Source: an uncultured bacterium (GTDB lineage Bacteria; Babelota; Babeliae; Babelales; Vermiphilaceae). Taken from it: 64,000 nt of DNA. Made by a program: the position numbers and the translations under genes. The notes under the pieces are model-generated. The model had not been told where the DNA came from and ran no database searches. It was given only the letters and a program-made list of their open reading frames with translations. The DNA is taken from NCBI GenBank assembly GCA_963713925.1, contig OY970212.1, positions 160,001-224,000 on the forward strand. The letters are read 5' to 3'. Shown in pieces: positions 5,772-39,381 of the stretch. Position 1 is the stretch's first letter. The number at the start of each line of letters is the position of its first letter.

Positions 5772-6122
5772 ATGAAAATCAATAGTACTATGATAACAAC
5801 AGCGTTCGAACTTCCGGGATATAAAATCAACCAATCACTCGGGATGGTCAAAGGCATTTCGGTAAGATCACGCAGTATTATCGGCGGAATCGGAGCCGGA
5901 ATACAAACTCTTTTCGGAGGAAATATTTCATTGTATACAAGTCTATGCGAAAAAACTCGTCAGGAAGCTTTTACTATTTTAATTGCACAAGCAGAGGCAT
6001 TAGGAGCAAATGCAATCATCGGAATGCGTTATGATGCTACGGAAATTGCTGCCGGAGTCACTGAGGTAATAGCATATGGAACAGCCGTTATTGCCGATAC
6101 CGGGTTGAAGAGTAATTTTTGA
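5772..6122 (+). CDS. YbjQ/UPF0145 family protein
   Basis: [35 protein letters not shown] motifs. Confidence 0.92.
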
Positions 6123-8080: not shown

Positions 8081-8320
8081 AGAGCTTATATGAAATTCCC
8101 AGAAGTTGCTCATTGCTATGTCAGGGCAGAATTTATTTCAGGATCTACTTAACCTGGATCCAGCCTTTTACCCAAATTCAGCGTGCGCTTCATTTGGGAC
8201 CCAGCCTTCGCTTATCCAGGCTTTCGGGCTTGGTAAGCTACGGCGGACAAGTTGCTGAAACAAGTGCCTCTTGACAACCAACCCCTTTTAGTTAGAAAGC
8301 TTAATTTTCGGATAAGCTCT
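8081..8320 (-). mobile_element. MITE-like element copy 1 (240 bp), with nested palindromes
   Basis: Ends AGAGCTTATATGAAA ... TTTCGGATAAGCTCT; reverse complement aligns with 27356-27501 and 31360-31629. Confidence 0.85.
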
Positions 8321-9369
8321 CATTCTTTAATCGGGATCAAACTTTTGTATAGTCCCTGTTTATCAATTTTTGCAATCCACATTTCATGGTCTTGGCGGCC
8401 GTAGGCAAGGACAATGGAGTCGTCAGCATCAATAAAACCGCACGGAAATACGGCAACAATGGAACCCCAATACGGTTTGTAGGTTGTGCCATGATAAAAG
8501 TTTTTTCCAATAATCGGGAATGAACTCATTCCGGTTATGTTAAAGGGAAATTGCGTAGAAAAAGTGTAAGCACCGATAAAATAATGGCGGGCCAGTTTAG
8601 GATGATGTACTGATTTCATCATCAATGATGAATGAAAAAATGATAGGTAGTGATCTCTATATCGCAGTGCTGTAGTTCCTCCGCGAGGCTCACCCCATTG
8701 CCAATCAATTCTTGCTTCAGTTGTTCCTATCGATTGGCAAAATTCCGTGCCCGTCAAATCAGGTTTAAATATTTTGTGCGGGGTAATACTGTATCCCAAC
8801 AATAATGTATCTTGAGACACAAAAGGAACCCAGTTTTTTTCTCGTTGGTTGTTATCACATCCTTCAAAGAGCGATAATCTTTCGATCTGTTCGATGAGCA
8901 CTTTTTGAGGTGCACGCCCTTTGCATGATAATCGAGCAACATGCATACGAAATCCTTTTTTACTGATAACCGGATCTACGTTATCGCTATAAATCAAATA
9001 GAGCTTATCTTTAATCGAGACAAGTCGACCGTCTTCCGCACGTGAAGGAATCGTTGAGTTGGGACGGAAATCCAAAAGCATCGGCTTTGAAATAGGTTTC
9101 AAATCTTCATTGAGCCACACAAGGCCTATGTATGAGACAAAAGAATTTTTCGGATCGGGTATAACACGAAAACTCATCAAAATGTTGTGCTGCCAACGAA
9201 TAATTGAAGGATTAAAAGCGGTAGGATATTCTTCAAGAATGATCTGCTTTGTCTCTCGGACAAAATCTTGGCTGAAGTTTTCTAAATCAATGTGTGAGCT
9301 CTGCAAAAAACGAACGTATATAAGAGCAATGCAACAAGAGAACTTAGGAAATGTCATAGATATTCTCAT
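8320..9369 (-). CDS. Exported five-bladed beta-propeller glycosidase/mannosyltransferase-like protein, paralogue 2
   Basis: FNPSII, EDGRL, EKNWVPF, RGGT, FFHS, YGRQD motifs; paralogue of next gene. Confidence 0.65.
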   Translation of the reverse strand: MRISMTFPKFSCCIALIYVRFLQSSHIDLENFSQDFVRETKQIILEEYPTAFNPSIIRWQHNILMSFRVIPDPKNSFVSYIGLVWLNEDLKPISKPMLLDFRPNSTIPSRAEDGRLVSIKDKLYLIYSDNVDPVISKKGFRMHVARLSCKGRAPQKVLIEQIERLSLFEGCDNNQREKNWVPFVSQDTLLLGYSITPHKIFKPDLTGTEFCQSIGTTEARIDWQWGEPRGGTTALRYRDHYLSFFHSSLMMKSVHHPKLARHYFIGAYTFSTQFPFNITGMSSFPIIGKNFYHGTTYKPYWGSIVAVFPCGFIDADDSIVLAYGRQDHEMWIAKIDKQGLYKSLIPIKE

Positions 9370-10450
9370 CTACTGAGACATCAGTTATTGCTTTAGTGCT
9401 TATTGATTCAGCTTGCTCGATGTCAGCGTGTGAGCAGGGCATTAAGCTTTCATACAATCGTTTCTTGTCCAATTGTGCAACCCATATCTCAAAATCTTGT
9501 CGGCCGTAGGTAATCCAAATATATTCTTTTTCAGCGATGATTCCCATGGGAAATACGACGCGCAATGGCTTCCAGGTAGGATATGCAGGCGCATTGTAAA
9601 AATTTTTTTCCACAATTGGCAGGGGACTTATGTCAGTAACTGCAAACGGCGGTTCGCTTGAAAATCGGTAGGCTCCCATGACATAGTGGGACATTTTTTT
9701 CCCGTCTGAATGAACCGTTTCCATTTCTTGTGACGAATGAAAAAATGAAATGTATTTTCCTTCATCTAAAATTGCCGGTGTTCCGCCACGCAACACTCCC
9801 CATGGCCAATGTATATTGCATTGTGTTGAAGATACTGTCTGACAATAGCCATCTTCATATGATGGCTTGAGAATGATGTGCGGATTTTGACTGTAGGCAA
9901 GCAAAAGTGAGTCCTGATAATTAAAAGGAGTCCAATTCTTTTGCCATCTGGTAAGCGATCCGAAAGATGAGTTTAAGCATAATGGGTTTTCTACAAAAAA
10001 AGTGTCTCCATCTTGCTGCATCTGAGCAACAAACATTCTCCGTGTGACAAAATCATCAATTTTTGTGAAATTGCAGTATAAAATGTGGAGCTTTCCTTGA
10101 ATGACAATCAAGCGTGGGTCTTGATTTTGATTAAAAGAAGAATCAGTATCTTTTATTTTCAAAATCTGAGGTCGGCTTATTGGGTTAAATTCTTCATCGA
10201 GCCACACACATCCAACTTGAAAAGTTGATCTCATATGCGTGTCTCTCACTCGAAAACACATGAGTAATGAATTTTGCCAGCGAATGACAGATGCGTTAAA
10301 TGCTCCGGGATACCCGGGGATATGTATCTGCTTGGTTTGAAGAACAAAGTCTTGACAATAATCTGTGAGATCAATCAATGCCGCGCGTGATACATTTGAC
10401 AGTACCAACAGATATATCAGTAAAAATCTAACAATTTCCACTTTGATCAT
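9344..10450 (-). CDS. Exported five-bladed beta-propeller glycosidase/mannosyltransferase-like protein, paralogue 1
   Basis: FNASVI, QDPRL, QKNWTPF, RGGTP, FFHS, YGRQD motifs. Confidence 0.65.
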   Translation of the reverse strand: MIKVEIVRFLLIYLLVLSNVSRAALIDLTDYCQDFVLQTKQIHIPGYPGAFNASVIRWQNSLLMCFRVRDTHMRSTFQVGCVWLDEEFNPISRPQILKIKDTDSSFNQNQDPRLIVIQGKLHILYCNFTKIDDFVTRRMFVAQMQQDGDTFFVENPLCLNSSFGSLTRWQKNWTPFNYQDSLLLAYSQNPHIILKPSYEDGYCQTVSSTQCNIHWPWGVLRGGTPAILDEGKYISFFHSSQEMETVHSDGKKMSHYVMGAYRFSSEPPFAVTDISPLPIVEKNFYNAPAYPTWKPLRVVFPMGIIAEKEYIWITYGRQDFEIWVAQLDKKRLYESLMPCSHADIEQAESISTKAITDVSVDENIYDIS

Positions 10451-11316
10451 TCATTTTTACTTTCATTAAAAGGTAGTTCCATTTTTCGGCATTCCCAACA
10501 CTCAAATGGAAATGAATCGTATAAGACTTGCAAGTCACATTGGACGGGCGGCTCTCCGCCTAAAATTAAGGCTTCTTCAATCGAAGTTGCAGCTTTGAAT
10601 TCTGGGCGATTCGTTCCCCAATAATAGTCTTGATATTTTAACAGGGGCTCATTTTCGGTGACCTTCAAAAGCCGGGCCGGAATACCGAAAGCTTCAGCTA
10701 CAACAAGTCCATGTAATGAGCTTGAGATAACGAATTTACTATCAACTATTTTTTCAACAACGATGTCCCATGGTTCAGTGGGATACACCACATTTTGATA
10801 TACATCCTTGGGAAATAATTGTTCTTCAGAGTAGTGAGGAATAATAATGTATTCATATTTCGGATTCTTTTTTCTTTTGAATTCAGGAAAAAAATAGGGC
10901 ATAAGTAACGCGGGGTCACCATATACTTCTGGGCATGTGATGCCAAAATTTTCGATCAAAAATTGTCGCGTTATTGGCCCTCTGACTGCGCGAACATCGA
11001 GTCCATTAAATCTATAATATTTCAGATCAAGCCATTTGCCGTTGACTCCTGAGCCCCAAATGACATCATTATCGCGGGCAAACGTCATTATTGAGCCGAT
11101 GGCTAATAATTTCTTTTCTTTCACTCCAGCATTTTTATCAAATACGCGAACCGATGTTTGCACGATCCGTTCAACTAATTTGAGCGACAAGTAATCGCCG
11201 AAATTAATAAATTTATCGTTCCAGTAGTAAAGCGGGAGCGCTTTGTTCGATAATGCATTGTTCCCGATTAAGCAAAAAGAAAAAAGTATAAAAATAAAAA
11301 AATTAGATCGCTTCAT
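10447..11316 (-). CDS. Polysaccharide pyruvyltransferase family protein with signal peptide
   Basis: NFGDYLS, WGSG, AVRGPIT, YGDPALL, SSSLHGLVVAEAFGIP. Confidence 0.9.
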   Translation of the reverse strand: MKRSNFFIFILFSFCLIGNNALSNKALPLYYWNDKFINFGDYLSLKLVERIVQTSVRVFDKNAGVKEKKLLAIGSIMTFARDNDVIWGSGVNGKWLDLKYYRFNGLDVRAVRGPITRQFLIENFGITCPEVYGDPALLMPYFFPEFKRKKNPKYEYIIIPHYSEEQLFPKDVYQNVVYPTEPWDIVVEKIVDSKFVISSSLHGLVVAEAFGIPARLLKVTENEPLLKYQDYYWGTNRPEFKAATSIEEALILGGEPPVQCDLQVLYDSFPFECWECRKMELPFNESKNE

Positions 11317-13254: not shown

Positions 13255-13929
13255 ATGTGTTTTTCTGCCAATGTTAGTTTTGTAAGTGCCGGAATTCTGG
13301 CCCTCATCGGCATCACCTGCTTTGCTCTTTCAAAAACAAAGGGCGAGCGATTTGTGTCATCAATACCTCTGTTTTTCAGTATTCAGCAACTCATAGAAGG
13401 ATTTCTGTGGCTTACCTTGCCGGGAAATTCATCATTTGCTTCGTTGTTGACATACAAATATCTCTTTTTTGCACTGGTGTGGTGGCCGATTTGGATGCCG
13501 ATTTGCATTGCCGTGTATGAAACGAATTTTTGGAGAAAGGGAGCGATCGGTATATGCGCGATCTTAGGAATTTGCACCGGTATTTTTTATCTCAAACAAC
13601 TTTTTTTGTATGGCGCAACAGCAAGTATACATAACACACACATAGCCTATGACTTGGTGCAACCACTGAGTTTGCCGATGGGTATTATTCTCACACTGCT
13701 CTATTTTGTATGCGCGATCATTCCCTTTTTTATATCGAGTCGTCGATATATGTGGGCTTTGGGGGCGGCTATCTCAGCTTCATACGTCATCTCGTTTATT
13801 TTTTACTATGCGAACCTTGGTTCAATATGGTGCTTCTGTGCCGCCATTATAAGCGCACTGACATTGTGGATACTATGGCAAAATCAGAAAGAACATCGAA
13901 ACGAAATAGTGGACACGGATTATTTTTAA
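13255..13929 (+). CDS. Polytopic membrane protein (DUF6629-like)
   Basis: MCFSA start, IPLFFSIQQLIEG, SIWCF motifs; AGAGG RBS. Confidence 0.8.
   Translation: MCFSANVSFVSAGILALIGITCFALSKTKGERFVSSIPLFFSIQQLIEGFLWLTLPGNSSFASLLTYKYLFFALVWWPIWMPICIAVYETNFWRKGAIGICAILGICTGIFYLKQLFLYGATASIHNTHIAYDLVQPLSLPMGIILTLLYFVCAIIPFFISSRRYMWALGAAISASYVISFIFYYANLGSIWCFCAAIISALTLWILWQNQKEHRNEIVDTDYF
13865..13929 (+). repeat. 65-bp direct repeat, left copy (bounds toxin-immunity cassette)
   Basis: TGTGGATACTATGGC...GGATTATTTTTAA, one mismatch to 17786-17850. Confidence 0.95.
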
Positions 13930-13964
13930 GCATCAGATCTTCATGGTTACTACTGTATAAGTAG

Positions 13965-14309
13965 CTATGCTCGAGTTTTTTCATGGGATAATGAGTCTGC
14001 TAAGTCGATAGCCTCTTGAAGGTATTTTTTCATTTCTTCTAATGTTTTACATCTTTGTTTGTAAATTGGTTTTGTCCAATCTTCATTCCGAATAATCCTT
14101 ATCATAAAAGAACCATCCGGCTTAGTTGCGGGATAATAACCCACATCTACGCAAAGAGCTTCTCCAAACTCTATTTGAATTAGATCCTCTGTAAAGAAAA
14201 ACTTTTGATCATCAAAAGGAATCTCAGGAGCTATTTCAAAACTATCATATTCAAGTACGCCTGACTTTATATCGATAGCATACAAGTAATTGCTTTTAAA
14301 TTTTTTCAT
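13965..14309 (-). CDS. Putative immunity protein 5
   Basis: EDLIQ, VDVGYYP, DW, YLQEAIDLAD family motifs. Confidence 0.8.
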   Translation of the reverse strand: MKKFKSNYLYAIDIKSGVLEYDSFEIAPEIPFDDQKFFFTEDLIQIEFGEALCVDVGYYPATKPDGSFMIRIIRNEDWTKPIYKQRCKTLEEMKKYLQEAIDLADSLSHEKTRA

Positions 14310-14634
14310 GGGATAACGAATCGGCTAAATCGATAGCCTCTTGCAAGTATCTTTTCATTTCATCTATTGATTTACAACACTTGTCATATGAGGGCTTTTC
14401 CCAATCTTCATGTAAAATAACTTCTACCATGAAAAATCCGTTAGGCTTACTTGCCGGATAATAACCTACATCCACACAAAGAGTTTCTCCAAACCCTATT
14501 TGAATAAGATCTTCTGTGAAAAAAAGATTTTGATTTTTAAAGGGAGCGTTAGGATTTATTTCAAAATTATCATAATCGAGTGAGCCGGATCTCAATTGTA
14601 TATTTTTTAAGAAAGAGCTTTTAAATATTTTCAT
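14296..14634 (-). CDS. Putative immunity protein 4
   Basis: Same family motifs; stop overlaps start of next gene. Confidence 0.8.
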   Translation of the reverse strand: MKIFKSSFLKNIQLRSGSLDYDNFEINPNAPFKNQNLFFTEDLIQIGFGETLCVDVGYYPASKPNGFFMVEVILHEDWEKPSYDKCCKSIDEMKRYLQEAIDLADSLSHEKI

Positions 14635-14677
14635 AATCAGTCTTTTAAATGATACCGATATTCTTCATATTGATTCA

Positions 14678-15025
14678 TTACGATTGTGCACGTGGCATGC
14701 GATACATTTCATCGGCAAGATTGATTGCTTCTTGGAGATACTTTTTCATGTCTTCCAATGATTTACATTGCTTTTTATAAATTGGTTCATCCCAATTTTC
14801 ATCTAAAATAACTTCTATCGAAAAAAAGCCATCGGGTTCAAATTCAGGGTACCAGCCGACATCCACAATAATTGATTTCCCAAAATTCATTTGAATAATG
14901 TCTTCTTTATATGATAATTCTTGTTTTTCAAATGATACTAATGGATCTATATCAAAATCATCAAACGTCAACTTTCCACTTTTAACTGTAATGTTTTTTA
15001 GATATGGGCTTTTAAATTTTTTCAT
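14678..15025 (-). CDS. Putative immunity protein 3
   Basis: EDIIQ, VDVGWYP, NW, YLQEAINLAD. Confidence 0.8.
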   Translation of the reverse strand: MKKFKSPYLKNITVKSGKLTFDDFDIDPLVSFEKQELSYKEDIIQMNFGKSIIVDVGWYPEFEPDGFFSIEVILDENWDEPIYKKQCKSLEDMKKYLQEAINLADEMYRMPRAQS

Positions 15026-15341
15026 GGGATAACGAATCGGCTAAATCGATAGCCTCTTGCAGGTATAGTTTCATTTCGTTGATCGATTTACAACGCTTAT
15101 CATATAAGGGCTTTTCCCAATTGCTTTCATGGATAACAAAAATCCTAAATGCGCCCTTGGTATCTATTGAAGGATACCACCCAACATCAATGGTGTAATT
15201 TTTGGGATAGTTAATCTGTATTAAATCTTCTTGTAACAATAGTTTTTGACTTTTAAGTGGAATATTTGGATCGATTTCGAAGCTGTCAAAAATGCGATTA
15301 AACCTCTTAAGTTTAATTTCGCTCAAATATGGACTATTCAT
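15012..15341 (-). CDS. Putative immunity protein 2
   Basis: EDLIQ, IDVGWYP, NW, YLQEAIDLAD. Confidence 0.8.
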   Translation of the reverse strand: MNSPYLSEIKLKRFNRIFDSFEIDPNIPLKSQKLLLQEDLIQINYPKNYTIDVGWYPSIDTKGAFRIFVIHESNWEKPLYDKRCKSINEMKLYLQEAIDLADSLSHEKI

Positions 15342-15697
15342 TATGATTGTGCGTGGGGCGTTCGATACATTTCATCGGCAACATCGATTGCTTCTTGAAA
15401 ATATTTTTTCATTGTTTTTACATCTTTACAATATTTTTTGTAAATAGGATTTTGCCAATCATAGTTGATAGCGACCATTATTTGAAATTGACCATCTTTC
15501 TCAAACTCCGGATTCCATCCAACATCAACTGTAATGGGTTTTCCATCCTTAAAACTTATTAAATAAATAATATCGGAAGCAAGTAAAGATTCTTGTTCTT
15601 CAAGTGATAGATCCGGATCGATTTGAAAATCGTCGATGATCAAACTACTTGATTTGATATCGATATCTGAAAGATAATCACTCTTAAAATATTTCAT
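15341..15697 (-). CDS. Putative cognate immunity protein 1
   Basis: Starts 5 nt after toxin stop; VDVGWNP, DW, YFQEAIDVAD. Confidence 0.8.
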   Translation of the reverse strand: MKYFKSDYLSDIDIKSSSLIIDDFQIDPDLSLEEQESLLASDIIYLISFKDGKPITVDVGWNPEFEKDGQFQIMVAINYDWQNPIYKKYCKDVKTMKKYFQEAIDVADEMYRTPHAQS

Positions 15698-15702
15698 CTA
15701 TT

Positions 15703-17691
15703 TTATATCCTTATACCACTTTCTTTTAAAAGATTTTTGTATTCTTGATAAGGTATTGGATGTCCATGTATAGTGTTTGTGGTCATTTCTATTCTACTGT
15801 ACTGTGTTTCAATACCATTTTTGGCGCCAATGATTTTACCCCAATCCATAACCTTCCATCTGCCATCTTTTACCGAGATTCCTTGTTCCCAGCCTAACCG
15901 TTCAAGTTGTTCTATATTTACTCCCGGCTTATATCTTGCATTTCCATGACGGGTGCTTTCTACAATCTCTTTCCAACTGAGCCTAGGCTGAGGACGATGT
16001 TTTGGATAATCTTGTGCCCATTCAACTTTTGATGCCCCATTTTTTGATTGATCGATACGACTTGATTGATCGGTTTTTGTCTGGCGCAAGTTATTACTCG
16101 TGCTGTCATCAATCATTTTAAAAATTTGTCCATCGGGAGTGGTGGCAACAAATTCGCGTTGACGATTTTTGTAAAACTTACGCAGTTTTTGAGCAGCTTT
16201 CTTTGCGCCTTTGATCAGTTTCCTGGCACTTTTCATCAAAGTGTAATCGGCACTCAATTCACCGCCAACACGGCCGAAGTCTCGCAGCGAATGCTCTAAC
16301 TTGTATGTTCCGTCATGGATGCCTTTAAACCGATCGGTAATGCCTTTGAACTTTTCACTCAGTTCGGCTTCTGCCGCTTCTTTGCCTTCAAAGCAATACA
16401 GGCCGAGCGTTTCGCCTATTTCAACGCCGAGTTGAAATGCGCTGTAACATAAGAATGCTTCTTTTACTCCCGGGACAAACACTCCAGCAGTGATCACTCC
16501 GGCAACCATGAGACCTTGGACAATAGTTTCCGGAATTCTGCTTTGCACCCCGTCAACATAGCCTCCCCATGTGGCGGTCGAATAATCCATTAATGCAGCA
16601 CAAAAGTTGTTTACTTTGGATGCTTTTGTGCAATAGCCTTGCGCATTAAGAGCTCTGCCTGAATCAATCGTTTGTACGAGCTCCGTTATATTCTCACGCA
16701 TCCAAATACTTTTAAATGGATGACTACTTTGCTCAAGAAGCCGGATTGAATCAAGATGGATCTCTTTCTGAATTTCATTTCCATACAAAGTATTCCAATC
16801 GCTCGGATTGAGATTATGTTCTTTGATATAATCATTCAGCTCTTGCGCATTAAATTCATGCACGGCAAAAACATCCCGTGAAAGAGTGATAAGATCTTTT
16901 TTGTATCGATCTGGAACTTCGCTTGGATCAACTACCTTTTCGATCCAACAACGCATGTTTTTGTTGTAATCTTGAAACTCAGGGAAATCTTTTCTGAAGT
17001 GTTCATGAATGATGAGGTATTTTTCTTCTTTTGCGGAAGTTGCTTCCGGTTTTTGTTCCCGAACCGGTTTTGAGTCATTTGAGGCTTGTTGATTCGAAAT
17101 AGCTTGTTCTTGAGCCGCTTTTGACTCATTAGGCGTTTGATAATCAGGGAGAGGTCCATGGGCCCGAGGCTCTTTGGATAGTAAAAGAATTCGTCGCGCT
17201 TCAGCTTTCTTTTGAGCAACCCATTCTTCTTGCGGTACTTTCCTAGAGTCATTACTATTTATTCTCCAACGAGATTGTGGTATTTCAGCTTCCTTCAGAA
17301 CTTGTTCATAAGCACGGTATTCTTCTTTCGTGAGTGTAAATTTTTGATCGTTATCGTATACGATATATACAACATCAATACCATCGGATTCGATCTGATT
17401 GGGAGACTTGTTTTCTTGAGAATTGTCATATCCAAGAAGTTTTTTTATTCCTTTATAAGTCAAATAACCAGCACCTATAGTTGCAACAACGATACTTATG
17501 ATCGGAATTTCCGATATTCTATCAAAAAACTTGTTTTGATTCTTTTGTCTATCATTATTTCCGTTTTGACTATTCCTGTTGCCTTGATCCAAAAGATTGG
17601 GGCCGTTGTTGTTCGGGTCATACGGATCATAATAAGATGAAATATTTTGTATTGAGAAGATCGATAGGATGATAAAAAGAAGTGTGCGCAT
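15703..17691 (-). CDS. Secreted polymorphic toxin with putative C-terminal nuclease-type toxin domain
   Basis: AGAGGAG RBS before ATG 17691; signal peptide; hydrophobic segments; ATTPDG then basic C-terminal domain KH..W..I..ST..G.A.Y...IGA..G...R.E....IHGHPI; followed by small acidic paralogues. Confidence 0.8.
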   Translation of the reverse strand: MRTLLFIILSIFSIQNISSYYDPYDPNNNGPNLLDQGNRNSQNGNNDRQKNQNKFFDRISEIPIISIVVATIGAGYLTYKGIKKLLGYDNSQENKSPNQIESDGIDVVYIVYDNDQKFTLTKEEYRAYEQVLKEAEIPQSRWRINSNDSRKVPQEEWVAQKKAEARRILLLSKEPRAHGPLPDYQTPNESKAAQEQAISNQQASNDSKPVREQKPEATSAKEEKYLIIHEHFRKDFPEFQDYNKNMRCWIEKVVDPSEVPDRYKKDLITLSRDVFAVHEFNAQELNDYIKEHNLNPSDWNTLYGNEIQKEIHLDSIRLLEQSSHPFKSIWMRENITELVQTIDSGRALNAQGYCTKASKVNNFCAALMDYSTATWGGYVDGVQSRIPETIVQGLMVAGVITAGVFVPGVKEAFLCYSAFQLGVEIGETLGLYCFEGKEAAEAELSEKFKGITDRFKGIHDGTYKLEHSLRDFGRVGGELSADYTLMKSARKLIKGAKKAAQKLRKFYKNRQREFVATTPDGQIFKMIDDSTSNNLRQTKTDQSSRIDQSKNGASKVEWAQDYPKHRPQPRLSWKEIVESTRHGNARYKPGVNIEQLERLGWEQGISVKDGRWKVMDWGKIIGAKNGIETQYSRIEMTTNTIHGHPIPYQEYKNLLKESGIRI

Positions 17692-17785
17692 GGTTACTAC
17701 TCCTCTGATGTATTGTTTGCGATTCATGCATCACAATAGCACAAAAGAGAATGGATGGAAATCTGTAAACCGGACTGCTTGACAG

Positions 17786-17850
17786 TGTGGATACTATGGC
17801 AAAATCAGAAAGAGCATCGAAACGAAATAGTGGACACGGATTATTTTTAA
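17786..17850 (+). repeat. 65-bp direct repeat, right copy (contains uvrB stop codon)
   Basis: Matches 13865-13929 with one mismatch. Confidence 0.95.
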
Positions 17851-19814
17851 CCGACAATCTTTTTCAGCTGCATCCATTCATCGCGCAATGCGATTGCTTT
17901 TTCAAAATCAAGTTCTTGAGCGGCAACTTTCATAAGCTCTTCAAGCTCAATCATGCGCGCTTTTGCTTGCTCGGGAGATGATGCGAGTTGTTTCTTTTTG
18001 GAGCGCTTTTGTTCAGATGCCTGTGCGATTGCTTTTTGAATGTCAGTGATGGTTTTTGAGACTTCGCGACGAACCGTTTTTGGAATAATGTTATGCTCTT
18101 GGTTATATGCCTGTTGCAATGCTCTGCGTCGTTCTGTTTCATCCATCGCGCCACGCATTGATTGCGTGATCGTGTCGCAATAGAGGATTACTTTCGATTC
18201 AGTGTTACGCGCCGCTCGCCCGATAATCTGTATTAATGATCGTTTGTCGCGCAAGAAGCTTTCAATATCTGCATCCATGATGGCAACCAGCGCAACTTCA
18301 GGAAGATCAAGCCCTTCACGCAGTAAGTTAACTCCAACCAAACAATCAAAAATGCCAAGACGAAGCTTTTGAATAAGCTCAGTCCGTTGTGGCGTTTTGA
18401 GCTCGGAATGTAAGTAACAGACTTTAATTTTTCGTTCTTCTAAATAATGGGCCAACTCTTCGGCCAATTGTTTGGTCAAAACGGTCACTAATGTACGGAA
18501 GCCTTTATCAGTTGTTTTTTCAATTTCGGTAACCAAATGATCGAGCTGCCCTAAACGGGGGTGCATTTCAACCACCGGATCAAGCAATCCGGTCGGACGA
18601 ATTAATTGCTCAACAATCTGATCAGAGTGTTTTAATTCATAATCACTGGGAGTTGCAGAAACAAAGATCACATCTTTAAAATATTTTTCTATTTCTTCAA
18701 ATTTAAGCGGTCTATTATCAGCAGCTGAAGGAAGGCGGAAGCCAAACTCAATCAATGATGTTTTGCGCGCCTTATCTCCCGCATACATGCCGCGCAATTG
18801 CGGAAGCGCAATGTGAGATTCATCAATAATAAGCAAGAAATCTTTAGGGAAGAAATCAAACAAGCATGCCGGTTGTTCTCCCGCTGCACGTCCATCAAAA
18901 TGGGCTGAATAGTTTTCAATACCCGAACAGTATCCAACCTCTTGCAACATTTCAAGATCATGTGCAACACGTTTTTCAATGCGCTCGCGATAAATAGGGT
19001 TTTGCAGCTTCGGCGCCCATTGTTCAAGCTCCATTTTGATCGTTTTCATGGCCGCTTCTTGTTTGTCTTTGGTTGTTACAAAGTGCTTGGCCGGATAAAT
19101 AACGGTGTCTTGAATATCTTGAATAACATAGTTGTTCATTTTATCAACTAATTGCATCGATTCTAAGGTGTCTCCAAAGAGCTCAAAGCGTAATTTTTCT
19201 TTGATATAGGGCAATATGATCTCGATGGTGTTGCCCATGACGGTGAATGTCCCTGCTTTTTTTTCGGCATCATTGCGTTCATATTGAATAAAAATGAGGC
19301 GACGTAAGATATCATTGCGATCAATCGTCATGCCGACGGTCAGTGGAATGGCTAATTTACGCAACTCTTCTGGGTCACCAAGTGAATAGATGCATGAAAC
19401 AGAAGAAATGATAATAGTGTCCGGTCGATTAAAGAGTGACGCCGTTGCTTCAACACGTAACCGCTCAATTTCACTATTTACCTTGGTTTCTTTGGGGATA
19501 TAAATATCTTGTGCCGGGAGGTAAGATTCTGGTTGATAATAATCATAATAGCTGACGAAATACCCAACCTTATTTTCAGGGAAGAATTGACTAAACTCTT
19601 CATATAATTGGGCGGCAAGCGTCTTGTTGGGCGATAGAATCAAAACAGGCTTGTTTTGATTGGCTATCACGTTGGCCAAGGTAAAGGTCTTACCCGAGCC
19701 AGTCACACCAACTAGCGTCGAAACACCGGGTCTGCCTTTGACCAATTGCTTGATCGCTTCAGGCTGACTACCGGCCGGTTTATAAGGTGAATGAAGTTTA
19801 AAAATATTTTTCAT
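17847..19814 (-). CDS. uvrB: Excinuclease ABC subunit B
   Basis: GVTGSGKT, FVSYYDYYQPE, IIDESH, NLLREGLDLPEV, GRAAR, C-terminal UVR domain. Confidence 0.98.
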   Translation of the reverse strand: MKNIFKLHSPYKPAGSQPEAIKQLVKGRPGVSTLVGVTGSGKTFTLANVIANQNKPVLILSPNKTLAAQLYEEFSQFFPENKVGYFVSYYDYYQPESYLPAQDIYIPKETKVNSEIERLRVEATASLFNRPDTIIISSVSCIYSLGDPEELRKLAIPLTVGMTIDRNDILRRLIFIQYERNDAEKKAGTFTVMGNTIEIILPYIKEKLRFELFGDTLESMQLVDKMNNYVIQDIQDTVIYPAKHFVTTKDKQEAAMKTIKMELEQWAPKLQNPIYRERIEKRVAHDLEMLQEVGYCSGIENYSAHFDGRAAGEQPACLFDFFPKDFLLIIDESHIALPQLRGMYAGDKARKTSLIEFGFRLPSAADNRPLKFEEIEKYFKDVIFVSATPSDYELKHSDQIVEQLIRPTGLLDPVVEMHPRLGQLDHLVTEIEKTTDKGFRTLVTVLTKQLAEELAHYLEERKIKVCYLHSELKTPQRTELIQKLRLGIFDCLVGVNLLREGLDLPEVALVAIMDADIESFLRDKRSLIQIIGRAARNTESKVILYCDTITQSMRGAMDETERRRALQQAYNQEHNIIPKTVRREVSKTITDIQKAIAQASEQKRSKKKQLASSPEQAKARMIELEELMKVAAQELDFEKAIALRDEWMQLKKIVG

Positions 19815-22447: not shown

Positions 22448-23716
22448 GTGGTAAAAAGGGAAATCATGGAGCGTTTCGTAGGGGAAAAGCAGGTAAAATA
22501 TCATATTTTATTAGTCATTTTATTATTGGTCGCTGCCGTTTGTGCCCCACGCCTTTTTCTGGCTATGCGCTCTTTTTTATCAAAAAGCCAGGTTTCCACC
22601 ACCCCTTCAGGACTTATGCTCGGTGTTGATCTTTGTGATAAAGCGGCGCTTAAAAAACTTCTACAATCCAAAGGCTCCTTTGCGCTTGTGGCAAATCGGC
22701 TGAGCCTGACCAGCTCAGGGCTGCATACCATTGATCACCTTGTTTGCCAAGGCTTTGTTCCGCAATACTGTTTGTCCACGCATGAGTTTCATTTCTCAAA
22801 GGCAGACGCATCTTATTTATATCAAGCATCCGGAACTGCCGTTCCCTGTATCAATTTGTATGTTGAGAATGCGCTTAATACAGAGCCGCTTCAGGCTGTT
22901 GATACTATCATCTTTGATATGTCGGATCGAGGACTCGTCCAAGATGCGTATCAAAAAATGGTATTGGATGTTATGACCTATGCCCACTCGAATCAAAAAA
23001 AGCTCATTATTCTCGATCGTCCAACGCAGGTGAGCAGCTCCATAGAGGGGACATTAAAACGTATCGCGTCAGATGCTTACACCATACAACTGCCCATTGC
23101 TCATGGATTAACGCTCGGGGAACTTGCCACCTTTTATAATCATCAGCTTTTTCATAACGAAATTGATATGCATATCAATCAGATGAAACATTTTACAAGA
23201 GATGTCACGGACTTTACCGGCAATGATGCTACCTATATAAAAATGGTGCTCAAGCCATTTGAAGCAATTGCTCCCTTTGATATCACACCACCAACCGATG
23301 CATGTCACCAATGCATTCTACTGGCCGATTCTCTGTCATTTGATCGGCATAATTGGTTTGATTTACGCGCCCAGCTCAAAAAATATGGCATCGATGCGCG
23401 CATGTATCGCTATTATAATGAACTCAAAAAAGAATATATGAGTGGATTGCAGCTTTTTGCGATGCCGGGGCAAACGAAAAAGCCACTGCAAACAACTGTT
23501 TTTCTCCTGCAATTTTTTAAACAAAAAGGCCTGGGTTTTCATTTAAATGAACAGTTTGATACGGTTGTCGGCAATCACAAAATACGAAACTACATCGAGG
23601 GTAAAGTGACAAAAGATGTTTTCACCAATGAAACGAATGCTGAACTTTCAACCTACTTTCAAAATGTGTATCCAGCATTTTTATATCAACCGGTTCCGAT
23701 TGTTCTAACGTTATAA
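22448..23716 (+). CDS. Divergent NamZ/DUF1343-like protein (probably degenerate active site)
   Basis: ALVAN, FDMSDRG, ILDRP, PIAHGLTLGELA; lacks PEHG. Confidence 0.75.
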   Translation: MVKREIMERFVGEKQVKYHILLVILLLVAAVCAPRLFLAMRSFLSKSQVSTTPSGLMLGVDLCDKAALKKLLQSKGSFALVANRLSLTSSGLHTIDHLVCQGFVPQYCLSTHEFHFSKADASYLYQASGTAVPCINLYVENALNTEPLQAVDTIIFDMSDRGLVQDAYQKMVLDVMTYAHSNQKKLIILDRPTQVSSSIEGTLKRIASDAYTIQLPIAHGLTLGELATFYNHQLFHNEIDMHINQMKHFTRDVTDFTGNDATYIKMVLKPFEAIAPFDITPPTDACHQCILLADSLSFDRHNWFDLRAQLKKYGIDARMYRYYNELKKEYMSGLQLFAMPGQTKKPLQTTVFLLQFFKQKGLGFHLNEQFDTVVGNHKIRNYIEGKVTKDVFTNETNAELSTYFQNVYPAFLYQPVPIVLTL

Positions 23717-23765
23717 AATGCCCCCAAACGAAAGCTTTTGGGGCCCCCTAAAGAAGGAGTAATGT

Positions 23766-24983
23766 ATGCGGTATTTGTATATAGTGTGCGTACTACTCAT
23801 GCAAAATCTTGCTGCGTACAAACTTGGCATTGATCAATTTTCCCCTCAAGATCTGCGCGTTCTTGGCTACAAACCTGATGCTCGCATAGCACTTGTTACC
23901 AATCAAACCGGCATGAACAGTATCGGCAAAAGCACGCTTGATATTCTGAGGGCGCATCGCCTCACGGTGAGTTGCTTGTGTGCCCCTGAACATGGAGTTG
24001 ATGGAAAAATACAAGCCGGCATTCCTGTGGCAGATTCAACGCAGAAAAAAACACGCATTCCTATTATTAGTTTGTATGGGCATGGCAGAAAAGATTTAAC
24101 GCCTGATTTTTTTGATACATTTGATCTGTTTGTCTTTCACCTACAAGATGCGGGGATGCGCCATTATACTCATGTCGCTACCTTATTATATGTTTTAGAA
24201 TTGGCAAGCATACACAACAAAGGATGTATTGTGCTCGATAGGCCAAACCCGCTGGGGCACATCATGGAAGGCCCGGTCATTGAAAAACCGATGGTAAAAA
24301 ATGGGGTAGCATCATTTTTAGGTTCTGTTCCGTTGCCGTTACGCCATGGCATGACTATTGGGGAAATCGCTCTTTTTTTAAACAAACATGTTTTGAAAAA
24401 ATCGATACCGCTGCATGTTGTTTGCCTGTGTGATTATGAACGAACGATGCATGTCAAACCGCATGATTGTAAAACGCTTTCGCCTAATATCCAAAGTAAA
24501 AAAGCGTGCATGGGCTACAGCTTTTTAGGCCTGCTTGGTGAAGTGCGCCCCTTTGATGTCGGCATTGCAACTGATCATGCCTTTTGCAGATTCGGATTGC
24601 CACATTCTGTTGCCGATAAACAGCAATGGATTGCGTTAAAAAATTCGCTTCACAAAAAAGGAGTAATATCCGAATATAGTGCATATAAACGAAAAGATGT
24701 CACTCACCACGGCCTGACTATACGCGCATTTGATCCTTTGAAAAGCTCAAGTTGCACATTATTTTGCGACATCATTGCTCACTTTAAAAAATGTGGAGTT
24801 ACATGTTCATTCTCAGATCATTTTGATACCGCAGCCGGATCTGAATTGCTTCAAAATCTTGCACAAGGTCTCGTGAAAAAAGAATCTGGCGTTGCAACAC
24901 TTTCGCAGCAATTAAAACAATTTTATACAAAAGCCCAATCCTGTTTTCTGTATAAGCCATATCCGCAAATGCTCGTGCCCTAA
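23766..24983 (+). CDS. Exo-beta-N-acetylmuramidase NamZ (DUF1343) family protein
   Basis: LVTNQTG, APEHG, LQDAGMRHYT, VLDRPNPLG, PLRHGMTIGE. Confidence 0.88.
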   Translation: MRYLYIVCVLLMQNLAAYKLGIDQFSPQDLRVLGYKPDARIALVTNQTGMNSIGKSTLDILRAHRLTVSCLCAPEHGVDGKIQAGIPVADSTQKKTRIPIISLYGHGRKDLTPDFFDTFDLFVFHLQDAGMRHYTHVATLLYVLELASIHNKGCIVLDRPNPLGHIMEGPVIEKPMVKNGVASFLGSVPLPLRHGMTIGEIALFLNKHVLKKSIPLHVVCLCDYERTMHVKPHDCKTLSPNIQSKKACMGYSFLGLLGEVRPFDVGIATDHAFCRFGLPHSVADKQQWIALKNSLHKKGVISEYSAYKRKDVTHHGLTIRAFDPLKSSSCTLFCDIIAHFKKCGVTCSFSDHFDTAAGSELLQNLAQGLVKKESGVATLSQQLKQFYTKAQSCFLYKPYPQMLVP

Positions 24984-35947: not shown

Positions 35948-36754
35948 TCAAGATCCACAGCCGCCACAACCACCGCCCCCATCTCCGCTGCTACAACCGC
36001 TACCATCTCCTGAACCACAACTTGAGCTATCTCCGCTATCAGTTGAGCCAAAAGCACTGCTACCACAGCTTGAATTTGATTTGTCAGGAACAAAGCTCGT
36101 AAGCCAAGTCGTAGCCAATAGTGCCATATCAGCCGGCGAATGATCTTGGCTCGATTTATTAATATCTTCAGCACGTTGTGCCGCAAGTGACATTTCTATG
36201 CAATTCGATGAACATATCTTTAATCCATCCCAAATCTCAACATCCGGGGTGGTATCAAAATATTCTTGATATGTTGTTATAAATTGCATTTTTTCCTGAA
36301 CATTGCATTTTTTGGGACAACCTTGCCCAGGTTCAAACGGGATGTGATATAACATTTTTTTATGATCATTGATAGGTAGAAAGGAGCAAAAATGTTCGTA
36401 GTCTCTGTTGAAAAGCAAAAATGTATGCCACATTTTATCAACATCTTTACTAAACATGTTCACCGATTTTCCACTCGTGCTTGCTATTATTGCATATCGA
36501 ATCCATTCTTTGCGTATTTTTTCAGCGTGCTCGAGAGTAGATTTTGAATCTTTTATGTACCGCCTTAAAACCGCGTGTGGAATTTGTCGCTCAAAACTAT
36601 ATTCCAATAATTTCCCACGACCACTCCAATATGATGTCTGTTGCGAATAATTTCTTCTGTGGACTGCCGGTCTCTGATACGTTTTTACATGCATTGAAAA
36701 AAGAGGGCTTGAAATGATGCACAACAGATAGGGTAAAGAACGCTTATTAATCAC
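35948..36754 (-). CDS. Exported glycine-rich-domain (GRDP-like) protein with Cys/Gly tail, paralogue A
   Basis: SKDVDKMWHTFLL..DY..FC...YHIP; tail GGGGCGGCGS. Confidence 0.75.
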   Translation of the reverse strand: MINKRSLPYLLCIISSPLFSMHVKTYQRPAVHRRNYSQQTSYWSGRGKLLEYSFERQIPHAVLRRYIKDSKSTLEHAEKIRKEWIRYAIIASTSGKSVNMFSKDVDKMWHTFLLFNRDYEHFCSFLPINDHKKMLYHIPFEPGQGCPKKCNVQEKMQFITTYQEYFDTTPDVEIWDGLKICSSNCIEMSLAAQRAEDINKSSQDHSPADMALLATTWLTSFVPDKSNSSCGSSAFGSTDSGDSSSCGSGDGSGCSSGDGGGGCGGCGS

Positions 36755-36928: not shown

Positions 36929-38437
36929 ATGAAAAAGTTTATTTTAGTTTCAGTCCTCGTAATGTCATATTTCTCGCCAGCTATTGAAGCTTCAGACGTT
37001 GAAACCGTCGTATTTGATGACGGAACTCAATTTAAAGCCGATCGCGCTACATTGGAAACATCAAGCGTATTGAAAAATCTGCTTGAGGCTACCAAAGGCA
37101 AAGAATTGCCAATTTCCGGAATCTCTTCTGCAACGTTTAAAAAACTGTACGAATTCATGCAAATAACCAAAGAAGAAAAACCTGCTTTGCGAAAAATTTG
37201 GCCCCATCTGAGTGATCCGATTGAACAGCGTGCTCAGACATTAGATTTGAATACAACAAAAGAACTGCTCATTGCAGCGGATTTTTTCAATATCAAGCGA
37301 TTGATAGAACCATTTATTAATCATTTTGTAGATTTGTTGGTAAGCAATGAACAATTAAAGAAAATGCTCAAAGATCCAATTACCTTTATGAATAAAATAA
37401 AGTTAAATCCTGTTCTAGATGAATTGGTACGTCAAAAAATTATGGGTAATACTGATGTAAAAAAAATATTCATACGAATCATTGAACGAGCACCAAGAAA
37501 AATTGAAACGTTCTGTGCCGGCAACATTAAGTTTTCTTCAGAATCAAAAATTTTAGGTGAATGTGAGTGGCTTCCAAGTGGTGATTTCTTGATAAATTCA
37601 TGGGATCCAAAAACCGGAAAGTCTATAGACACCTTTGTAGGGGGTCAGCTTTATTACAATACAACAACTTCCCCAGACGGTTCGATGTATCTATCTACTG
37701 AACGGCGACTCACCAAATTATTATCGAACACGGTTAGTATTGAACACGGTTACGGTCTTGTGTTGCACAAATATGATACAGGAGAACCATTGCGTAAATT
37801 CGGCAATGCATTTAATCAACATGACACATGGATTAGTTTTGAGATATTTTCTCCCGATGGCTCACTGGTCGCCAGTGGATCTAATGATGGAGCTCTCAAA
37901 TTATGGGACACCAAGACCGGAAATTTACTGCGCAATTTTACTGGTGGTCATAAAGAAAGGATTACTTCAATTGCTATCTCTAGCGACAATTCAACTTTGG
38001 TGAGCATAGGCTACGACAATGCCATGAAGATATGGGATATCAAAACAGGTGATTTATTACGCTCTTTCGATTTCAGTGGATACCTTTACACCCCAGTCGC
38101 AATTTCACCGAGCAACTTAATGTTTGCTGCATCCGGCAAAGACTCCTCCAAAAAGGAATATAACATCGACATATTCGATATGTCCGTTGAACAAATGCCT
38201 CTTGATCTCGCCTTACTGCTTTTGGCTCTCTCAATTGATCCTTTAAAAGAAATTTCGCAACCACAGATAGATATTAAAGACATACAGCCTATCGCAACCA
38301 ATGCGCTTGAAAAAATAGACGATGAAGATGTAAAACAATCAATCAAAAAATATATCGAACAAAGAGAAAAACTCTTTTCATCATGGTGGACTGCATTTCT
38401 GTATCGATTCCGAAAAGCCGGTAGTCAATTTGAGTAA
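36929..38437 (+). CDS. Exported Skp1/BTB-POZ-like plus WD40-repeat protein
   Basis: SSVLKNLL, ELLIAADFFNI; ASGSNDGALKLWD, GHKERITSIAIS, MKIWD. Confidence 0.85.
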   Translation: MKKFILVSVLVMSYFSPAIEASDVETVVFDDGTQFKADRATLETSSVLKNLLEATKGKELPISGISSATFKKLYEFMQITKEEKPALRKIWPHLSDPIEQRAQTLDLNTTKELLIAADFFNIKRLIEPFINHFVDLLVSNEQLKKMLKDPITFMNKIKLNPVLDELVRQKIMGNTDVKKIFIRIIERAPRKIETFCAGNIKFSSESKILGECEWLPSGDFLINSWDPKTGKSIDTFVGGQLYYNTTTSPDGSMYLSTERRLTKLLSNTVSIEHGYGLVLHKYDTGEPLRKFGNAFNQHDTWISFEIFSPDGSLVASGSNDGALKLWDTKTGNLLRNFTGGHKERITSIAISSDNSTLVSIGYDNAMKIWDIKTGDLLRSFDFSGYLYTPVAISPSNLMFAASGKDSSKKEYNIDIFDMSVEQMPLDLALLLLALSIDPLKEISQPQIDIKDIQPIATNALEKIDDEDVKQSIKKYIEQREKLFSSWWTAFLYRFRKAGSQFE

Positions 38438-38463
38438 TAAATAGAGTTTACTTTAATATATAT

Positions 38464-39381
38464 TTAAGAACCGCAGCCACCGCCGCCTCCACAGCCACCT
38501 CCGCTGCAGCTGCTACCGCCGCTACAGCTACTATCTGAACTGCTGCAACTGCTATCTGAACTACAGCCGCTAGCGCTTGAAGTATCGGTGGTTGGAGAAC
38601 TATTGCTACAACTAGCCCCTGACTTGTCATGTTTTGAATAGTCTTTCTCTTCGCTGGACCAGGTATGTCGCACTTTTGAACGGACTTTCTCTTCATCAGA
38701 CCAGGCATGTCGCACAACTTCACCGGCAATCAAAAAGGTTGCCCACATTGCAGTAGTTGACAAATAGCTCTGAGTACTTTCATTCAGGGAGCCCATTTGA
38801 TATTCATTTAGATGTAGTTTTGATCGCTCTATACAAACCGAGGAGCATATTTTCAGCTTATCCCAAACTTCGACATCTGGATCGACATTAAAATGCTCTT
38901 GGTACGCTGCTATAAACCGCATTTTTTCTGAAGCGTCACATTTTTTTGGACATCCTTCTTCTGATTCGAATGGCTGGTGGTAAAGCATTTTCTTGTGATT
39001 ATCAAAAGGCAGATGTCCGCAAAAATTTTCATAATCTTTATTGAAGAGCAAAAAAGTGTGCCACATCTTATCAACGTCTTTACTAAACATGTTCACTGAC
39101 TTTTCAGCACGGCTTGCAATTATTGCATATCGAACGAATTCATCACGCAATTTTTCAGCATGCGAATAATTAGAATTTCCAAAATCTTTCATATAGCGCA
39201 TTACAACTTGGTTCGGGAAATGGCGTTTCAACTCATCAGCTTTTGAAATCATCTGATACGAGGCTTGCTGAGAATAGCTTCGTTTGTATGCCTGACATCT
39301 TTGACGAACCTTTAAATGCATTGGAAGAACTTGGCTTGAAAACATACAGAGTAGAAACATTGAAATATATTTATTGAACAT
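38464..39381 (-). CDS. Exported glycine-rich-domain (GRDP-like) protein with Cys/Gly tail, paralogue B
   Basis: Same SVNMFSKDVDKMWHTFLLFN core as 35948-36754; tail CSGGGCGGGGGCGS. Confidence 0.75.
   Translation of the reverse strand: MFNKYISMFLLCMFSSQVLPMHLKVRQRCQAYKRSYSQQASYQMISKADELKRHFPNQVVMRYMKDFGNSNYSHAEKLRDEFVRYAIIASRAEKSVNMFSKDVDKMWHTFLLFNKDYENFCGHLPFDNHKKMLYHQPFESEEGCPKKCDASEKMRFIAAYQEHFNVDPDVEVWDKLKICSSVCIERSKLHLNEYQMGSLNESTQSYLSTTAMWATFLIAGEVVRHAWSDEEKVRSKVRHTWSSEEKDYSKHDKSGASCSNSSPTTDTSSASGCSSDSSCSSSDSSCSGGSSCSGGGCGGGGGCGS

Follow-up and report, generated by a model that had tools for sequence, protein, structure and literature searches.

A likely antibacterial polymorphic toxin cassette with a predicted RNase tip, a lineage-specific carrier and five immunity-family genes in a Babelota genome

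The MafB toxins of Neisseria and the proteins with the N-terminal domains Microscilla-N and, in Amoebophilus, APD1 and APD2 all combine a signal peptide and a lineage-restricted constant domain with a variable C-terminal tip and a downstream immunity gene (PMC3482391, section 37). The 2012 survey that describes them anticipated additional lineage-specific N-terminal domains, defined homogeneous polyimmunity loci and noted that intracellular bacteria mostly lack immunity proteins, so that they would rarely compete with their own kind, Odyssella being an exception (PMC3482391). In homogeneous polyimmunity loci, such as the strings of esaG, tsaI or tipC genes, a toxin is followed by tandem, non-identical paralogues of one immunity family that have blocks of DNA in common (PMC9484751; PMC3482391, section 39). 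Here we analyze a locus that resembles both arrangements, in a stretch of 64,000 nucleotides (the window; contig OY970212.1, positions 160,001 to 224,000) from the genome of an uncultured member of the Babelota, a phylum described as strictly intracellular in protists (PMC12172432); the bacterium itself likely lives inside protists. Its genome is a single contig of 1.32 Mb, 95.75% complete, and named homologues bear the labels Babeliaceae, Babeliales or Dependentiae, which agrees with placement in Ca. Babelota (Dependentiae). The cassette in question, a toxin-like gene followed by five small paralogous genes, is in our assessment quite probably an antibacterial polymorphic toxin system, in which a protein, likely exported by Sec, bears a predicted RNase tip at the end of a lineage-specific core and is accompanied by five likely immunity genes. 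The layout is textbook; the carrier domain, the toxin-immunity pair and the scale of the phenomenon in an intracellular phylum appear to be undescribed, and a literature search that left aside subscription papers and supplements found no paper joining Dependentiae or Babel- names with polymorphic toxins.

The features that characterize polymorphic toxins are found together here: a constant carrier with variable C-terminal domains, a tip family that also occurs on other carriers, and an immunity-family gene directly 3' of the toxin. The toxin protein consists of three parts, namely a likely signal peptide, a helical core of about 320 amino acids (aa) and a C-terminal tip. The open reading frame (ORF) encompasses 674 aa on the reverse strand (15703..17727, from the ORF list), but the likely start is the second ATG (17691), which is preceded by a Shine-Dalgarno-like AGAGGAG and would yield a protein of 662 aa. 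The signal-peptide-like N-terminus (17635..17691, reverse strand) coincides with a hydropathy peak and was judged by hydropathy only (84/105 vs 101/208).

The core (aa 235-552; 16072..17025, reverse strand) is a helical bundle with a YGNxxQ...H motif, a hydrophobic segment at aa 402-420 and a T[PT]xG motif before the tip. It has no Pfam or NCBIfam match and no significant fold match; its structural model is almost all helical, with high confidence for the first 150 residues and low confidence where the sequence is glycine-rich and hydrophobic. Nine genes of the window genome contain this core (seven strong matches, including the window toxin, and two weak ones), with tips from seven families (Ntox21, Ntox17 and EndoU are three of them). 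Over aa 1-555, the closest paralogue shares 47% identity with the window toxin; beyond this point, both its tip and its first downstream gene are different. Elsewhere, the core recurs by the hundreds: the profile recovered 826 clusters at 50% identity, and among the best 150 of these, 121 extend past the core, yielding 30 tip clusters, a few of which are probably fragments. Pfam toxin tips were detected in 29 of 135 scanned core proteins (Ntox17, Ntox21, Ntox35, EndoU, Cytotoxic and Ribonuclease, all nuclease or predicted-nuclease families), an N-terminal PT-HINT domain in 2, and a MafB, Rhs, LXG or PT-TG domain in none. The core is present in 98 of the 261 genomes of the phylum set (71 of the 189 of good quality) and was not found in 301 and 301 genomes of two other phyla. 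Judging by these comparisons, the core appears to define an undescribed polymorphic-toxin family with swappable tips, each with its own small downstream gene. The initial annotation of this locus, made without database searches, had suggested that delivery may be lineage-specific and proposed looking in relatives for the same N-terminus with other C-termini; the tips swapped on a common core, with 30 tip clusters among 121 representatives, agree with both ideas.

The likeness to MafB extends to predicted export by the general/type II route and to the tip families in common (EndoU, Ntox17, Ntox21 and Ntox35). In the ESM Atlas, MafB was a weak feature lead (0.87; 98 of 256 features), below the range in which the Atlas is reliable. 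Membership in the MafB family was rejected: scans of 23 cores (cutoff E 0.1) and of 135 full-length proteins (cutoff E 1e-4) gave no match to the MafB-N/DUF1020 domain (PF06255), and no conserved MafA-like lipoprotein gene lies upstream, the neighbours being unrelated in 19 rows inspected by eye. The organization differs as well, in that the constant part here lies in the middle of the protein, behind 200 variable N-terminal aa, the locus is free of orphan tip cassettes, and the family is spread over a phylum rather than a genus. Of the domains that mark Rhs, CdiA, LXG or type VI secretion system (T6SS) effectors, YD repeats, haemagglutinin repeats, LXG, PAAR and PT-TG were not found in the toxin, as the initial annotation had already stated for trafficking domains of these classes.

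The tip (aa 568-674; 15703..16026, reverse strand) is homologous to the toxin domain of a Salmonella bongori Rhs protein (PDB 8QJC; E 1.7e-19 in a sequence search of the PDB). According to the S. bongori preprint, that domain required a co-expressed immunity protein, was disordered in the crystal and is predicted to adopt the RNase fold of CdiA-CT Ykris, with H1437, K1458, H1515 and H1517 at active-site positions. These proposed catalytic residues align with H577, R598, H654 and H656 of the window tip. All 60 aligned tips have the three histidines, and position 598 is basic in 53 of the 60 (Lys in 50, Arg in 3). An N-terminal His, a basic residue and a terminal-strand His constitute the pattern described for RNase A-like (BECR) toxins (10.64898/2026.08.28.747851), and this pattern is present in the window tip. 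CdiA-CT Ykris, from Yersinia kristensenii, is a demonstrated RNase of the RNase A superfamily (PMC5435912) and, per the preprint, the top structural match of the S. bongori homologue. The link to the window tip is second-hand: the His/Arg catalytic pair is at equivalent positions, Thr276 and Tyr278 of CdiA-CT Ykris correspond to His/His in the tip, and the PDB searches gave no sequence match between the two. By this analogy, in which the fold rests on the preprint's prediction for the S. bongori homologue, the tip would be an RNase A-like RNase and would probably degrade RNA through H577, R598, H654 and H656. The main text of 10.64898/2026.08.28.747851 makes no mention of bongori or Dependentiae; its supplementary tables may already list the tip family.

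A search with the tip retrieved 166 homologues. Among the 120 listed, the tip always ends within 6 residues of the C-terminus, and the carriers include Rhs, filamentous haemagglutinin (CdiA-like), S-type pyocin, PT-TG and HINT proteins, with the window's own core in 25 of the 120. The domain is a mobile toxin tip, and its homology and fusions uphold the original reading of the gene as a toxin. The S. bongori tip rides a T6SS Rhs shell, whereas searches of the window genome recovered no Rhs, PAAR or T6SS sheath gene. In other Babelota genomes, the same tip and immunity family were observed on unrelated low-complexity N-termini (L006:472-1842 and L007:40-1869), so that several carriers exist in the phylum. 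At two further loci (L009:421-1704 and L050:1638-2722), the tips are severed from their carriers with the immunity gene intact; an annotated transposase gene adjoins L050, and the gene adjoining the L009 tip is, we assume, also a transposase.

The five small genes follow the toxin on the reverse strand: A (15341..15697, 118 aa), B (15012..15341, 109 aa), C (14678..15025, 115 aa), D (14296..14634, 112 aa) and E (13965..14309, 114 aa). Their pairwise identity is 40-66%, the maximum being that of D and E, and the tblastn E-values of 1e-23 to 1e-49 are far beyond chance, so the description of a secreted-toxin-like gene with five same-family paralogues of 109-118 aa is accurate. Several details of that description require adjustment. 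Tight coupling applies to three overlapping junctions and to the 5-bp gap between the toxin and A, but not to the 43-bp gap between C and D; four of the proteins are acidic (isoelectric point, pI, 4.4-4.9), but B is near neutral (pI 6.1); the motifs quoted as common to all five are altered at three places in A (SDIIYL, DVGWNP and YFQEAI); and the N-terminal halves, called divergent, are only modestly more so than the C-terminal halves (37-62% vs 45-69% identity). The array is AT-rich (GC 0.32-0.34 vs about 0.40), and the ORF list contains no other ORF between the paralogues. An ATG overlapping the end of E opens a short frame (13930-13984, reverse strand); its opening residues, with an EDL motif among them, look like the beginning of a paralogue; this faint trace is possibly the remnant of a sixth copy.

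Gene order bears on the function of the small genes. Across the 261 phylum genomes, 21 contain matches to the tip profile (23 in all) and 27 contain matches to the small-gene profile (44 in all), and a member of the small-gene family lies directly 3' of 20 of the 23 tips, that of the window included; the three tips that lack it are among the weakest tip matches. The same succession is found at 3 of 3 loci from other phyla (two Paenibacillus and one Bacteroidetes) and in 2 of 2 Klebsiella plasmids and, in the reverse direction, the tip lies upstream of the small gene at 10 of 13 metagenome loci. From this order, the small-gene family is likely the cognate immunity of the tip, as the initial annotation had proposed when it made its reading depend on homologues of the small genes occurring beside toxin domains. 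The family itself has no Pfam or NCBIfam match, and the AlphaFold model of C (alpha+beta, predicted local distance difference test, pLDDT, 95.7) has no clear structural match. Paralogue A, which occupies the position common to the family, is the likely cognate partner and very probably binds and blocks the tip. Complex prediction weakly favours this pairing: the tip with A scored 0.42 against 0.00 for the best control, with 100% contact agreement between runs and partner pLDDT of at least 88; of the 157 solved pairs, 116 attained this mark, as did 2 of the 215 mismatched ones, but those at 0.60 or below comprise only 18 solved pairs and both mismatches. Independent support for an immunity role of genes 3' of core toxins comes from another core member, the gene 3' of which belongs to Pfam CdiI_ImmP (E 6.5e-24). 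Orphans of the small-gene family adjoin different tips: two copies in the window genome follow a different tip, as do the orphans at 7 of 9 such loci examined by eye in other genomes. At L091:1501-2127, the tip is followed by a 208-aa ORF that matches the immunity family twice and is thus a fused pair.

The window array, with several tandem paralogues of one immunity family, is a homogeneous polyimmunity locus. It differs from the esaG, tsaI and tipC strings in that its family is another, unnamed one, that it is not linked to a type VII secretion system, and that it resides in a reduced 1.3-Mb genome in which 9 of 13 toxin-like loci, other carriers counted, are followed by arrays of this kind (2-5 same-family small genes). 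The window genome holds seven copies of the family, compared with at most three matches in each of the other 260 phylum genomes. In a tree of 66 rows and 114 columns, from which fragments and near-duplicates were excluded and in which many forks are open, all seven copies fall, together with five metagenomic proteins, into one 12-row clade (support 100/99), in which B, C and D/E each pair with a different one of three proteins that probably belong to the array of one relative. The array thus arose by local duplication before the split from that relative, and distinct types have been kept since. The layout of a toxin followed by immunity plus orphan immunity genes, as envisaged in the initial annotation, accordingly stands for the immunity array but not for the orphans: collection from other lineages is ruled out by the single clade shared with the genome's two orphans and close relatives, and the tip profile matches only the toxin itself in the window genome, with no orphan toxin tip within the array.

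The five copies could all have the same specificity, the array reflecting dosage or recombinational drift in an otherwise antibacterial system. Their membership in one clade would fit this explanation, as would their 3' ends, which are of two homogenised types (87-95% DNA identity among B, D and E, with 95% over the last codons of B and D, and 86% between A and C; 58-65% across types) and, as substrates for recombination, resemble the recombination blocks of esaG arrays (PMC9484751). We nevertheless consider it unlikely, because the copies are only 40-66% identical, all are intact, and nonsynonymous divergence is below synonymous divergence (pN < pS) in 10 of 10 paralogue pairs, with synonymous sites near saturation; the paralogues are under purifying selection, and the pairing of B, C and D/E with different proteins of the apparent relative's array speaks for distinct types. 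On balance, we favour the view that B-E, each intact and derived by local duplication, cover variant tips of related strains, such that each copy would neutralise a different variant and the targets would be kin in a shared host.

The window genome encodes two secretins, in line with the description of TM6 genomes (PMC4776705). Neither VirB4 nor FHIPEP was detected in this 95.75%-complete genome, and a search for VipB, the T6SS sheath protein, found nothing while its positive control was detected, so that no marker of type III, IV or VI secretion was found; ShlB (CdiB) was not found either, in a search that also missed its control. In Babela, type II is the only secretion system detected and is predicted to export host effectors (PMC4378268). 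Together with the strictly intracellular life of the phylum, the two secretins here and the constant N-termini with variable host-directed tips of Amoebophilus (PMC3482391, section 37), this could suggest a nuclease secreted into the protist, the small genes only guarding the producer against mis-exported toxin. Such a host-directed role is improbable in our view, given that the tips are those of antibacterial Rhs, contact-dependent inhibition and pyocin toxins, that orphan immunity to toxins not made at the locus and divergent arrays would be useless for self-protection alone, and that adjacent immunity genes are a mark of intraspecific conflict (PMC3482391). For an antibacterial toxin, a possible route, to which we give slightly less than even chances, is export by Sec and then type II secretion, after which the core, with its hydrophobic helices, would bring the toxin into a related cell.

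The cassette is enclosed by a 71-nt direct repeat, 97% identical between copies, that had been overlooked in the initial annotation. The left copy (13859..13929, forward strand) comprises the last 23 codons and the stop of a DUF6629 membrane-protein gene (13255..13929, forward strand; Pfam PF20334, E 1.6e-14), the likely insertion site, and the right copy (17780..17850, forward strand) abuts and overlaps the stop codon of uvrB (17847-19814). Under the filter used, the genome contains 13 unique close direct-repeat pairs, of which 4 enclose toxin-immunity cassettes and 9 enclose non-toxin cargo; two more in the window enclose a 116-aa gene (5772-6122; repeats 5492-5645/6279-6433) and a 268-aa gene (35948-36754; repeats 35869-35926/36787-36844). 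Six of the pairs overlap genes; in these, third codon positions account for 57 of the 68 mismatches, and of 64 codons that differ, 10 specify another amino acid (in the window pair, 3 mismatches and 1 change), so that the copies look like two alleles of a gene end. Such repeats would fit cargo arriving from related strains by recombination anchored in the flanking gene, and the pattern across the genome, in which gene ends are often duplicated and differ at synonymous sites, suggests that genes are commonly acquired from relatives in this way. The cassette contains no integrase, and no empty site was seen. We find it reasonably likely that recombination at the 3' end of the DUF6629 gene brought the cassette in and left two alleles of this gene end behind.

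Several core-family loci lie near recombinase or integrase-like genes. The core toxin at L003:7063-8583 adjoins a serine recombinase (Pfam) at a locus next to tRNA genes; those at L041:1-1287 and L037:13380-16001 have recombinase or, as we presume, primase-like neighbours; and at L034:3586-14356 (G013), four full core-family toxin-immunity pairs stand in tandem downstream of a gene that we take to be integrase-like. With core toxins beside recombinases or primase-like genes, some appear to ride integrative elements. These neighbours and the bracketing repeat would also be compatible with a selfish addiction cassette that stabilises an inserted element and has no role between cells. This is highly improbable: a signal peptide, a 320-aa carrier, swapped tips and orphan immunity genes are all unnecessary for addiction, and most of the repeat pairs enclose non-toxin cargo.

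Other loci in the set represent a second type of carrier, in which a start resembling a signal peptide is combined with a HINT-like domain (L124:955-2502, with a PT-HINT match; L126:1447-3189; L129:516-1654, where the gene is split; and G000:C1:4592-6172 and 37366-39168). At three of these loci, the tips belong to a single unnamed family, which two core-family genes carry as well, and each is followed by two paralogous small genes. L125:1329-4473 encodes a 498-aa protein with a restriction-endonuclease-like tip (motif by eye), then four paralogous small genes and an orphan of another immunity-like family. A dispersed repeat family of ~150 nt is abundant in G000 (for example, C1:341059-341222 and 645545-645696), and similar repeats lie just upstream of two toxin genes. 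Elsewhere in the window, two tandem pairs of apparent paralogues and an adjacent gene (8320-11316 and 22448-24983) presumably encode glycan-processing enzymes, by resemblance.

A broader interpretation, which we put forward tentatively and with somewhat less than even confidence, is that the YGNQLQQ core is a new toxin-delivery domain, type II-exported and self-translocating into related cells, and that kin warfare is pervasive in this strictly intracellular phylum, where co-infecting Babelota strains would use dozens of swappable nucleases to keep one another out of their protist hosts, the arrays of diverged immunity genes recording an arms race. The unnamed carrier domain would then have to deliver toxins without type III, IV or VI secretion systems, an unnamed nuclease-immunity pair would be spread across several phyla, and the five genes would provide a natural panel for the divergence of immunity specificity. 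If this is true, these parasites would routinely compete within a host, and such competition could determine superinfection exclusion and host range.

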